Sequence record: OL539454.1
DNA length: 59,985 nt
Reading direction: 5' to 3' (one strand)
Origin: Escherichia phage vB_EcoS_OddieOddie
Below the pieces are notes generated by a model, which saw only the letters and a program-made list of their open reading frames with translations, had not been told where the DNA came from and did not search any database. The position numbers and the translations under genes are program-made. Positions within the stretch are counted from its first letter, which is position 1; each line of letters begins with the position of its first letter. Shown one piece after another: positions 18,276-54,244 of this stretch.

Positions 18276-18282
18276 TAAATAA

Positions 18283-18310
18283 TTAACCCCTCAAACGAGG
18301 GGTTAATTTT
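18283..18310. terminator. bidirectional terminator between convergent genes
   Basis: TTAACCCCTC-AAAC-GAGGGGTTAA 10-bp stem with TTTT downstream and A-run upstream. Confidence 0.6.
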
Positions 18311-45503: not shown

Positions 45504-45550
45504 ATCGACCTCCTTTATATTATTTTAATATGAAGTCAAATCAACCTCAA

Positions 45551-45583
45551 TAAAAAAGCGCAACGTTTTCACGCTGCGCTTAG
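45551..45583 (-). terminator. possible leftward terminator upstream of HNH gene
   Basis: AGCGCAACG-TTTTCAC-CGCTGCGCT imperfect hairpin (8 of 9 pairs) with A-run on plus side (T-run for leftward transcript). Confidence 0.4.
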
Positions 45584-45886
45584 TTTAGATAAGGTACTTG
45601 ACTATTCAGCTTCCCCTATCACCGGTAAATTGTACAGCCTCGCCAAAGGCTGGTGACGGTTTGGTACATCTGGCGCCGTCGCGTTAAACATCGTTCACAT
45701 CGTTCAGTAAGTTGCGGGTTTATCCTGTTCGCTCCAGGAAGCCCAGCGAAAGTAGTTGCTGTAAGGAGGTACAGCTACCGCTTTCAAGGGCTTGAGTTAA
45801 GCATCGTTCACTAAGTTAATGTTGTTAAATTGTTAAACCTCGTTAACTGTGGTTATCTTAAAGGATGCAGTCTTGAATGGCAAGCT

Positions 45887-46204: not shown

Positions 46205-46572
46205 TTACCCCTTAAGTTTTGAATCATTCTATCGCAGGCAGCTTTTACAGAAGAGTTCTGCCAGTCTTCTTCAATTTGTGAAGGTTCTTCAGGCGAATAA
46301 GCAGCACTAATTAAACACTGATTATAACCTTCAATATAAGCCTGTTTTGCGGTATCTAATATTGCTTGTAAAGCAATATTAGATAATTGTTGATCCATCT
46401 CACACCTCACAGAATATACATAAACCAGAAGTAACCAGCTACGAAAATAGCACCCGCAAATAATTTTAAAAGCTCGAACATTGTTCCCTCCGTTAACTTT
46501 ATGCTGTAAGTATAGCAGGACTTGAGATGTATGCAACAACTTTAGACTTGAAATGCATCTATAAAATAGCAC
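46201..46572 (-). CDS. hypothetical protein
   Basis: 123-aa ORF coupled to downstream gene. Confidence 0.4.
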   Translation of the reverse strand: MLFYRCISSLKLLHTSQVLLYLQHKVNGGNNVRAFKIICGCYFRSWLLLVYVYSVRCEMDQQLSNIALQAILDTAKQAYIEGYNQCLISAAYSPEEPSQIEEDWQNSSVKAACDRMIQNLRGK

Positions 46573-52751: not shown

Positions 52752-52791
52752 TAGACACATGATCGGTCTAGCACTACTATATACACATACC
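52752..52791 (+). promoter_or_regulatory. candidate early promoter, copy 1
   Basis: TAGACA-CATGATCGGTCTAGCAC-TACTAT about 40 bp upstream of the 52829 gene. Confidence 0.4.
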
Positions 52792-53113: not shown

Positions 53114-53259
53114 CTACTATGGCACGCAAATACACGCTTACACGCGCACAGCACGCGTTATTATTGCAGGTTATGCGCATGGAGTACGAAGAGACTACAT
53201 GGGCGCAGGCTATGCAAACTGGGCGCGAGTTCTACGCGCAATTAATAGCACAAAATGCC

Positions 53260-53300
53260 TAGACAACATGATCGGTCTGGTGGATACTACACACATCAAC
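53260..53300 (+). promoter_or_regulatory. candidate early promoter, copy 2
   Basis: TAGACAACATGATCGGTCTGG shares a 20-bp core with 52752-52772; upstream of ATG at 53321. Confidence 0.4.
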
Positions 53301-53320
53301 CAAACAACGGGGTAAACAAA

Positions 53321-53560
53321 ATGCGTAGTTTCAAATGTGTAAGCGTAAACGATAATGCTAAGGCTAGTGCTAAGGGTCTGTTCACAGTAGGTAAAGTGTA
53401 TGACTTCAACATGGAAAGTTATATACACATGACCCTCACGGGCGTAATGTTCGGCGACGTTGGTGCTGTACGCTGCGAGTTAAACAAGTACACGGAAAAG
53501 GAATATGCCCTTATCAGCCGCTACACGGGCGAGCCGTTAGCTGTGTTCCATGCAGCTTAA
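53321..53560 (+). CDS. hypothetical early protein
   Basis: 80 aa from the internal ATG of ORF 53255..53560, chosen because the repeated promoter-like element overlaps the longer 5' extension. Confidence 0.4.
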   Translation: MRSFKCVSVNDNAKASAKGLFTVGKVYDFNMESYIHMTLTGVMFGDVGAVRCELNKYTEKEYALISRYTGEPLAVFHAA

Positions 53561-53587
53561 GCTATAACGCACACAGCGCCACGCTAG

Positions 53588-53626
53588 CGAGCTAATGCAC
53601 AAAGGCAATGGTAATGCATTAGCTCG
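53588..53626. repeat. perfect 12-bp inverted repeat with 15-nt spacer
   Basis: CGAGCTAATGCA ... TGCATTAGCTCG. Confidence 0.7.
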
Positions 53627-53636
53627 GGCGAAACAG

Positions 53637-53706
53637 GCGCACAGCTTCGCGCACAGCTCGCACAGCGCACACCGACCCACGCAGGCCCAGCCGCGCGACC
53701 CGACCC
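53637..53706. repeat. GC-rich short tandem repeats
   Basis: GCGCACAGC-like units x3-4 followed by CGACCC x3. Confidence 0.65.
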
Positions 53707-53993
53707 ATCCTTTTCCAGGTACTTGGAGCGCTGGGCGTGCCCTGTCCATCCTGATAGTAAGTGCTTGTCTAAATCTCACCCATCACTTTACTATCCACCT
53801 ACATCCATGACCCCACCTACCTTCTTTTTGAATATATACAGCTCATTTCTTCTAAATATATGGATTTTGGTAGTAAATTCTGAGTCGTCAACGTATAATT
53901 CGTCTTGTAGCTTCTCCATAGCTACCATCTTTAAGCGATGCAACCAATTTCTAGTTAATCTCATCAGTTCCAGAGCATTTTCGGAGGTATTTA

Positions 53994-54244
53994 TGTGCGA
54001 CTCCAGTGCAAGCGCTACACCCAGCACCTCCAGCAATGTGGTTACAGAGGTAAATGCAATGCGATTAGGTCCATATCGCGGCTATTATGGTCGTGCTGCA
54101 TGGAATGACGCTACTCAACGTTTTGAAGGCTGGATTATCTGCCCGGAACGTGTTAAATTTCACTCCGTAAAAGAGAAAAATATCGTTCTTAATTTTCAAA
54201 AATGTGTCACTAAATATGTAGAGGAGCAAGAAGAATGCGTGTAG
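53994..54244 (+). CDS. hypothetical early protein
   Basis: ATG with SD GGAGG at 53994; upstream part of longest ORF lies in repeat block. Confidence 0.4.

Follow-up and report, generated by a model that had tools for sequence, protein, structure and literature searches.

The window analysed here, 59,985 nucleotides (nt) of Escherichia phage vB_EcoS_OddieOddie (record OL539454.1), is a Seuratvirus (Queuovirinae) genome, and its largest gene-free gap once spurious open reading frames (ORFs) are removed, 53561-53992 (432 nt), lies among small early genes. The gap is bounded on the left by the stop codon of orf 53321-53560 and on the right by the GGAGG-N6-ATG of orf 53993-54244, and a gap length of 400-560 nt is kept in every lineage of these compact genomes. 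An earlier note on this DNA had taken 53561-53830 for a structured RNA or protein-binding locus rather than coding sequence. The block is non-coding and conserved, its composition is an outlier, one of its hairpins shows compensatory changes, and a promoter-like site within it is conserved. The reading that we favour, tentatively, is that it serves as cis-acting non-coding punctuation in the rightward early operon of Seuratvirus, terminating or insulating the transcripts of two early promoters, P1 and P2, and then restarting transcription from a regulated promoter. Most likely this is an ordinary kind of phage control region, an intercistronic terminator/promoter in an early operon, of which the present example is undescribed; the less ordinary feature is a strand-specific depletion of G whose conservation extends to places where the sequence itself is not conserved.

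Judged by cumulative GC skew and by its long ORFs, the genome has three blocks: structural genes occupy the plus strand (1-24 kb), genes for replication and modification the minus strand (24-50 kb), and small early genes the plus strand again from ~52.8 kb to the genome end; 53561-53992 belongs to the last of these. P1 and P2, which have the spacer core CATGATCGGTCT in common, are the sole representatives of their type in this genome; the conserved spacer suggests possible recognition by something besides sigma-70. The block lies 270-700 nt downstream of P2 and no later promoter of the P1/P2 type is present, so that transcripts from both would enter it after at most three small genes. Five lineages were compared: the clade of the window, Salmonella phage STP-SP5, Hafnia phage yong3 and the metagenomic lineages L074 and L075, the last two reached via homologues of orf 53993. 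The features of the locus are as follows.

52752-52780, plus strand: early promoter P1, TAGACA-N17-TACTAT, from a promoter scan
53260-53288, plus strand: early promoter P2, TAGACA-N17-GATACT, a paralogue of P1, from the same scan
53562-53577, plus strand: H0, a weak stem GCTAT/ACAGC with the loop AACGCAC; the conserved block starts here (53564)
53564-53621: module A, hairpins
53588-53626, plus strand: H1, a stem of 12 perfect base pairs around a 15-nt loop (z score -2.99)
53622-53738: module B, GC-rich repeats
53637-53672, plus strand: cluster of short direct repeats GCGCACAGC, GCGCACAGC, CGCACAGC and GCACACC; the GCACAGC copies are kept in the five lineages
53640-53824, plus strand: C-rich, G-poor, weakly structured untranslated tract, candidate Rho-utilization (rut) site; the top plus-strand segment for C minus G (29.6)
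53698-53725, plus strand: conserved core ACCCGACCCATCCTTTTCCAGGTACTT, including CGACCC repeats and the pseudo-palindrome CCAGGTACTTGG; near-invariant in the five lineages
53739-53823: module C, G-poor tract
53743-53759, plus strand: most conserved motif, TGTCCATCCTGATAGTA; identical in the five lineages save for single variable positions
53811-53821, plus strand: conserved CCCCACCTACC, the junction preceding inserts in some relatives
53824-53992: module D, AT-rich part
53871-53899, plus strand: candidate sigma-70 promoter of the downstream operon, TAGTAA-N17-TATAAT (-35 at 53871-76, -10 at 53894-99, spacer palindrome at 53878-53893)
53926-53940, plus strand: small hairpin CATC-TTTAAGC-GATG in the presumed 5' untranslated region (UTR), CATCTTTAAGCGGATG in relatives; kept in the window clade, STP-SP5, L074 and L075
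53983-53995, plus strand: ribosome-binding site (GGAGG) and start codon (ATG) of orf 53993-54244, where the non-coding block ends on the right; synteny between this gene and the block holds in every lineage

In the favoured reading, transcripts started at P1 (52752) or P2 (53260) would cross three small genes and enter 432 nt untranslated by any ribosome, in which they would present a stem-loop without a U-tract (H0/H1, 53562-53626), the GC-rich short repeats and then the C-rich, nearly unstructured tract. This tract would act as a rut site, with host Rho terminating or attenuating read-through in the AT-rich zone beyond it, and the hairpin would remain at or near the 3' end as a stabilizer or processing site. 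The AT-rich part would then provide the downstream operon with its own sigma-70 promoter, an operator-like spacer palindrome, a hairpin in the 5' UTR and a ribosome-binding site, as judged by their conservation. Untranslated rut-like RNA is an expected substrate of Rho in E. coli, and a regulated promoter needs insulation from read-through; with a rut-like front and a promoter behind it, the GC-rich/C-rich block would shield a promoter under separate control from the constitutive promoters of the immediate-early genes. What we infer here is the dependence on Rho, the activity of the promoter and the existence of any regulator.

The block is non-coding on both strands, in agreement with the earlier note. 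The two plus-strand ORFs to which that note referred exist (53595-53810 and 53723-54244), but the alignments of ~20 close relatives contain frame-breaking indels of 1, 2 and 31 nt, the ORF lengths differ in every relative and the ATG is missing in distant relatives. Depending on the phage, the ORF starting at ATG 53595 has 53, 58, 71, 79, 92, 96 or 126 residues, is open-ended or lacks its ATG, which explains why GenBank annotations of the block vary between zero, one, two and three 'hypothetical proteins'; about half of the public records carry such spurious proteins over it, and in five metagenomic relatives no gene was called in the gap. Codon-position patterns over the block are not coding-like. 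None of the three ORFs over it matched a PHROG or Pfam family, whereas both flanking genes match PHROG families strongly, and tblastn searches with either the 71-residue plus-strand or the 45-residue minus-strand ORF returned the same loci only, frequently split over two frames. A small real gene, either the plus-strand 71-residue ORF from 53595 or a minus-strand 45-residue ORF (53928-53791), is thus very hard to credit, even though such genes are annotated in some GenBank records. The ATG of the former lies within a hairpin arm and has no ribosome-binding site. The latter is intact in most E. coli-clade relatives, but it has one nonsense and two frameshift variants among them and polymorphisms distributed 6/7/3 over codon positions 1/2/3, and on reading the sequences it contains a stop in STP-SP5 and lacks a start in yong3.

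A search with 1.1 kb around the finding matched 34 phage records at 85-97% identity, nearly all of them Escherichia phages of the genus Seuratvirus and including Seurat, CAjan, slur01, BASEL Bas21-25 and CSP1; the block itself is present in about 30 phage records at 85-94% identity. The lack of conservation in related phages that the earlier note would have counted against itself is therefore not what is seen. In the distant relatives STP-SP5, yong3, L074 and L075 the block is always located directly upstream of the orf 53993 homologue. Homology starts sharply at 53564, three bases past the stop codon, whichever gene precedes, and this upstream gene differs among Seurat, CAjan, SLUR76 and VogelGryff. 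Segments that are invariant in the five lineages comprise the GCACAGC copies, CCCGACCCA.C..TTT.C..GGTACTT, T.TCCAT.CTGATAGTA, ACCCCACC.ACC, GGATTT, AAATTCTGA and CATCTTTAAGCGGATG; TGTCCATCCTGATAGTA and ACCCGACCCATCC...GGTACTT are among the invariant blocks. At least five mosaic breakpoints fall within the block (53564, 53621/22, 53738/39, ~53785 and 53821/23), breakpoints delimit its four modules A-D, and module B is swapped for 257 nt of unrelated sequence in GottfriedDienst, SA126VB, ECP2304 and Skure. The replacement module (L017 659-914, GottfriedDienst) contains an 11-bp hairpin (z -4.9), a promoter match at 10 of 12 positions, a hairpin ACGAAT/ATTCGT and two copies of CATAGACC, and it appears to be a functional analogue made of unrelated sequence.

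The composition of the block is its most distinctive property. The sense strand of this genome is G-rich (C/G ~0.8, as coding DNA), and the tract 53640-53824 departs from this more than any other segment: every other plus-strand segment with an excess of C over G is antisense to genes on the minus strand, and the next-best segment on a sense strand scores 17.2 compared with 29.6. The strongly C/T-biased stretch of the earlier note is present, but it is better described as G-depleted than as a polypyrimidine tract, since 53775-53852 (78 nt) contains 29 C and only 3 G at 72% pyrimidine and no G-free run in the genome is longer than the 41 nt at 53768-53808. YC dimers in module C (53739-53823) number 25.9 per 100 nt, compared with 9.9 genome-wide. 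The C/G ratio on the plus strand is 1.3-1.6 in every lineage and 1.52 in the unrelated replacement of module B, compared with ~1.0 or lower in other gaps of the window, and the Providencia phages PSTCR7 and PSTCR4 have a 600-nt non-coding region with a ratio of 1.6-1.9 and at most faint similarity to the window, its homology to modules C and D being weakly supported. The best argument that selection acts on one strand, most simply on the RNA, is a strand-specific depletion of G that outlives replacement of the sequence. The features expected of a rut site are also found, namely a C>G 'bubble' of at least ~70-80 nt (53775-53852; 53640-53824) in RNA that is untranslated and poorly structured, with no conserved ORF and weak folds. 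The AT-rich segment reported to follow is likewise there, with 35% G+C in 53831-53992 compared with 57% in 53561-53830 and ~44% in the genome.

The proposal of a structured RNA has support for a hairpin and its neighbourhood only. The perfect 12-bp inverted repeat described in the earlier note is present (CGAGCTAATGCA, 53588-53599, and TGCATTAGCTCG, 53615-53626, separated by the 15-nt loop), and three loci in the 60-kb genome combine perfect arms of 12 bp or more with a loop of at most 30 nt, compared with 0.12 expected from Markov simulations; the other two are a canonical terminator and a palindrome within a gene. In the window this stem, H1, can be extended to ~21 irregular pairs (53575-53639). 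The z score of a 94-nt piece of module A is close to -3 in the window, in STP-SP5, in a metagenomic variant and in the GottfriedDienst type, four lineages in all, with weaker folding in yong3 (z -0.3), L074 (z -0.9) and L075. The hairpin of STP-SP5 at the site of H1 is 10 bp long (GAGCTAGCCC/GGGCTAGCTC) and has three inner pairs changed on both sides relative to the window; it is preceded by a perfect 7-bp hairpin (GCGCTGT-AACGCAC-ACAGCGC). The stem of H0 has the same perfect 7 bp (GCGCTGT/ACAGCGC) in L075 and L078 and contains one G·U pair in yong3. Among close relatives three independent substitutions in the H1 stem (C53598T, C53588T and C53625T) give G·U pairs on the plus strand only and A·C mismatches on the minus strand, while two further substitutions are disruptive; the 3:0 pattern is a weak indication that the hairpin may matter as plus-strand RNA.

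Elsewhere the block shows little structure. The GC-rich repeat block (53627-53740) folds like shuffled sequences (z +0.18), 53736-53830 folds weakly (-10.4 kcal/mol over 95 nt) and the block as a whole has a z score of -1.9 on the plus strand and -0.2 (-0.22) on the minus strand. The covariation term of RNAalifold over nine representatives was +1.72, a positive and hence penalizing value. Rfam at the gathering threshold produced no match over the whole window and, at E values of up to 10, only two chance-level matches (15 bits compared with thresholds of 50-76), and a search for tRNA and tmRNA found none. The block does not appear to be a globally structured RNA, and only the 12-bp hairpin is supported. 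No terminator-like site was reported in a scan of 53561-53992. H1 is followed by GGCGAAACAGG on the plus strand and CTAGCGTGG on the minus strand and has no U-tract on either strand, and is therefore not an intrinsic terminator; the canonical terminator at 18281-18308, by contrast, has one. Two further RNA-level candidates were discarded. One is an anti-Shine-Dalgarno pairing between UACCUUC (53819-25) and GGAGGUA at orf 53993, which occurs in one minimum-free-energy fold, but on reading the sequences the complementarity is lost in STP-SP5 and yong3. The other is a CsrB-type GGA sponge on the minus strand, for which GGA motifs are neither enriched (TCC on the plus strand, 6 compared with 4.5 expected) nor conserved, CATCC occurring three times in the window and 0-2 times in the other lineages.

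The clearest candidate for a functional element lies just beyond 53830, where the earlier note stopped, and is the predicted promoter with its operator-like palindrome. The stretch 53862-53900 is the most conserved of the block (nucleotide diversity, pi, 0.011), and the homologous TAGAAA-N17-TATACT is the sole promoter-like match of the scan in STP-SP5, L074 and L075. The spacer palindromes in these three lineages are CTGAC-TT-GTCAG, CTGAT-CT-ATCAG and CTGAT-CA-GTCAG, and CTGAC..GTCAG compared with CTGAT..ATCAG represents a compensatory change from C..G to T..A. The spacer of a promoter is a classic place for an operator. The protein-binding locus that had been proposed is plausible for the repeats, and the best candidate for a binding site is this palindrome at 53878-53893, which is degenerate in the window. 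An overlapping minus-strand match (TTGACG-N16-CAAAAT, 53891-53864) is found in the window and in GottfriedDienst, with GTGACG-N16-TAAAAT in yong3, and may be a by-product of the palindrome. At the front of the region on the plus strand, GottfriedDienst and SA126VB have the strong hairpin (z -4.9), which carries a terminator annotation, and behind it the 10/12 promoter match; in PSTCR7 a canonical intrinsic terminator precedes predicted promoters. Searches for boxA, ops, Chi and DnaA-box motifs produced no convincing match, the best match to boxA (CGCTCTTA) in 53400-54000 having two mismatches and lying within the upstream ORF. A lambdoid nut site was rejected, as the boxA consensus is missing and H1 has a 12-bp stem and 15-nt loop rather than a 5-bp stem and pentaloop, and so was a P1-type minus-strand promoter at 53760-53775 (TAGACA...TACTAT), the spacing of which is wrong (6 nt, and 21 nt in relatives).

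Several observations weigh against operon punctuation as an account of the block. Its divergence as a whole is about that of the third codon positions of the neighbouring gene, orf 53993 (identities of 0.65 and 0.65 for STP-SP5 and of 0.59 and 0.53 for yong3, block and third positions, respectively; pi of 0.052 and 0.057 in the close clade), which means that there is no blanket constraint and that only short blocks are constrained. Rut sites are usually not conserved in sequence, so that the several 10-17-nt blocks that are invariant across the five lineages are unusual for such a site and point to sequence-specific recognition outside this model, which does not account for the invariance of blocks such as TGTCCATCCTGATAGTA. 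An excess of C over G would equally be expected in this genome of a unit with its sense on the minus strand. In the Providencia phages the G-poor tract lies beyond an intrinsic terminator and YC dimers are scarce in it (7.5 per 100 nt), which suggests that the common property may be G depletion and not rut. The predicted promoter of the window matches at three of six positions in the -35 and six of six in the -10, which falls below the per-hexamer rule of the scan, its spacer palindrome is degenerate (CTGAG-TC-GTCAA) and yong3 lacks the -10 of the restart promoter. In the literature on Seuratviruses, transcriptome, Rho or promoter data were not found for any member.

The main rival, unlikely but the one to be taken most seriously, is a minus-strand non-coding RNA. 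A sigma-70 promoter (TTGACG at 53891-86, N16, CAAAAT at 53869-64) would direct a G-rich RNA of ~290 nt leftwards through 53824-53640 to H1/H0, and this RNA could act as an antisense regulator of P1/P2 read-through, like lambda OOP, or as an R-loop replication primer, like ColE1 RNA II and the phage T4 origins. It explains the composition equally well, since G in excess of C marks the sense strand in this genome and the minus strand is the G-rich one here, and it explains the sharp left edge of conservation at 53564 equally well as an RNA 3' end; G runs (GGTAGGTGGGGT, GGGTCGGGTCG) directly follow the putative start, the promoter match recurs in GottfriedDienst and yong3, and in STP-SP5 and yong3 the minus-strand H0 is followed by a short U-containing tail. 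However, the scan reports a promoter on the plus strand only in STP-SP5, L074 and L075, the H1 substitutions retain pairing on that strand, the minus strand folds like shuffled sequences, no real U-tract lies beyond the hairpins on the minus strand in the window, and the two lineages with unrelated sequence have their predicted promoters and terminators on the plus strand. A rather unlikely alternative is that the block, its promoter excepted, is for the most part a neutral spacer, left over from decayed genes and from recombination junctions and kept because the relatives are recent and its homology serves mosaic exchange. Divergence at the level of synonymous sites, the mosaic breakpoints, the swapping of an entire module and the private 1-nt deletions in the window would all fit such a spacer; what does not fit is a gap retained in all lineages of compact genomes, a hairpin upheld by compensatory changes, G depletion retained in unrelated replacement sequences and the survival of a run like TGTCCATYCTGATAGTA at a background identity of ~60-65%, which is very unlikely by chance.

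Invariant motifs and repeats could alternatively reflect binding at the level of DNA, with the GCACAGC/CGACCC repeats and invariant blocks serving as iterons or operators for a phage early protein and forming, with the AT-rich segment, an origin or nucleoprotein site. The repeats reported in the earlier note are present, GCGCACAGC at 53637 and 53649 and CGCACAGC again at 53659, but at spacings of 12 and 9 nt they do not form a strict tandem series, and no array was reported by Tandem Repeats Finder; CGACCC occurs three times, at 53673, 53696 and 53701. All three copies of the 9-mer GCGCACAGC in the genome fall in 53144-53657, and the clustering of short repeats unique to the locus, the motifs of 10-17 nt, the adjoining segment of 35% G+C and the covarying palindrome in the promoter spacer speak for binding, as does the Providencia counterpart with its roughly one dozen (A/G)TAACA repeats and two GTCAC-N5-GTGAC palindromes. 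Compared with an iteron array there are three or four copies of a 7-9-mer at spacings of 12, 9 and 7 nt, which (like the 15 nt in Providencia) are out of helical phase, and although an AT-rich segment is present the repeat module is missing in one sub-lineage, with unrelated DNA in its place in the four phages with the replacement. No good DnaA box or IHF-type site is present, the locus is far from the replication genes and strand-specific depletion of G is not expected of duplex binding sites, which makes DNA-level binding doubtful and, in our judgement, quite unlikely. A more improbable possibility is that G depletion of a 200-300-nt untranslated plus-strand RNA is itself the conserved property and the RNA the product, an unstructured decoy that, early in infection, would titrate a factor of the host that binds single-stranded RNA (Rho, Hfq, S1 or a cold-shock protein), with specific contacts made at the short invariant blocks; Seuratvirus, the unrelated replacement module and the repeat array of the Providencia Craquatrovirus, which has its own promoter and terminator-like hairpin, all retain the G depletion.

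Among known systems, lambda nutR-tR1 and Rho-dependent terminators are similar to the block in lying just past the first promoter-proximal early genes and in the succession of an untranslated hairpin, C-rich, G-poor, weakly structured RNA and an AT-rich zone; like nutR-tR1, the block parts immediate-early from later early genes. It differs from nutR-tR1 in having no boxA/boxB consensus, no recognisable N-like protein and a far longer hairpin, and from Rho terminators in that several of its segments are conserved in sequence, the Rho dependence here being putative. The RNase III hairpins of T7 (R0.3-R1.3) are likewise intercistronic stem-loops without a U-tract in an early operon transcribed by host RNA polymerase, and the ~21 irregular pairs of the extended helix in the window recall them; however, this predicted extension is not conserved, STP-SP5 having two separate short hairpins and L074 and yong3 small ones. 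The promoter-early stem-loop (PeSL) cassettes of T4-type phages, reportedly described by Arbiol et al. in Genome Biol Evol in 2010, are said to be similar in being conserved non-coding cassettes with a stem-loop that border mosaic, exchangeable small early genes, with homology beginning exactly at the edge, as at 53564 here, whereas the present block is single-copy per genome, far longer and modular, and its stem-loop is not beside an early promoter consensus. Clustered short direct repeats adjoining an AT-rich segment are shared with iteron origins (lambda ori, P1 oriR), and a promoter-like site aimed into a tract that would yield G-rich RNA with R-loop origins (ColE1 RNA II, T4 oriF/oriG). 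Unlike in these origins, the repeats are only 7-9 nt long, few and irregularly spaced, their module is replaceable and there is no known initiator, and the G·U pattern of the hairpin favours the plus strand over the G-rich RNA of an R-loop.

Seuratviruses (CAjan, Seurat and BASEL Bas21-25) are widely used as E. coli model phages and therapy candidates. The block separates the promoter-proximal immediate-early genes from ~6 kb of further early genes; if it is indeed a Rho gate followed by a regulated restart promoter, it would set the temporal switch of the early programme and provide a concrete site for the involvement of host Rho.

The block is also a site of insertions. Directly after CCCCACCTACC, HNH homing-endonuclease genes are found in WildeMaa, Skure and phiG7 and an insert of ~450 nt with a small ORF in SD04 (53776-53823 in the window; L018 1727-2330; L073 900-1500; L014 828-1277), and slur01, SeppeHuegi, SD04 and L076/77 have a 31-nt insertion after 53776. 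Such a hotspot for mosaic exchange and homing-endonuclease insertion would be a natural and probably safe landing site for engineering only if the regulatory parts are respected. In addition, two single G residues present in all ~20 relatives, one after 53732 and the other after 53936, are missing from the window, which also contains a private cluster of six substitutions at 53838-53849; these could be real lineage-specific non-coding changes or assembly errors.

As to the source of the GC-rich island, a host or plasmid origin was ruled out by the absence of any counterpart of the block in 5,426 E. coli genomes and in PLSDB, and no second copy was found in the phage genome, so that an internal paralogue or a PeSL-like multi-copy cassette was also rejected. 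Motif scans of viral and metagenome collections produced mostly chance matches and few close relatives, and searches with the flanking proteins did not reach a Nonagvirus counterpart. The idea of a genome terminus (cos/pac) was dropped, as literature support was not found and the public records begin at arbitrary places. The flanking orf 53993-54244 belongs to PHROG 24875, with weak similarity to HicB-like antitoxins (E 0.005) and no PDB relative by sequence, and nothing in the analysis supports the 'Hfq' label that it has in one GenBank record.

The Providencia region (PSTCR7, L070 1-672; PSTCR4, L071 1-681) begins with the canonical intrinsic terminator and continues with two plus-strand promoter-like sites, an array of ~12-15 (A/G)TAACA repeats, partly with a 15-nt period, a hairpin resembling a terminator and the two GTCAC-N5-GTGAC palindromes. 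Its appearance is that of a binding array or of a self-contained gene for a non-coding RNA.

Upstream of the block, a 47-residue early gene (53119-53262, PHROG 37795) has 97.9% nucleotide identity to yong3 (L020 403-546) in a surrounding locus of ~60-70% identity, which would reflect either recent mosaic transfer or constraint at the nucleotide level. A fourth copy of CGCACAGC is found inside this gene, in the loop of a small hairpin at 53142-53158. In the minus-strand replication block, the second-largest ORF-free gap (45504-45886, 383 nt) lies near a perfect 33-bp near-palindrome, ATCTAATATTGCTTTACAAGCAATATTAGAT, inside a gene at 46353-46385 (two 15-bp arms and a 3-nt centre), and either could be relevant to mapping the replication origin.

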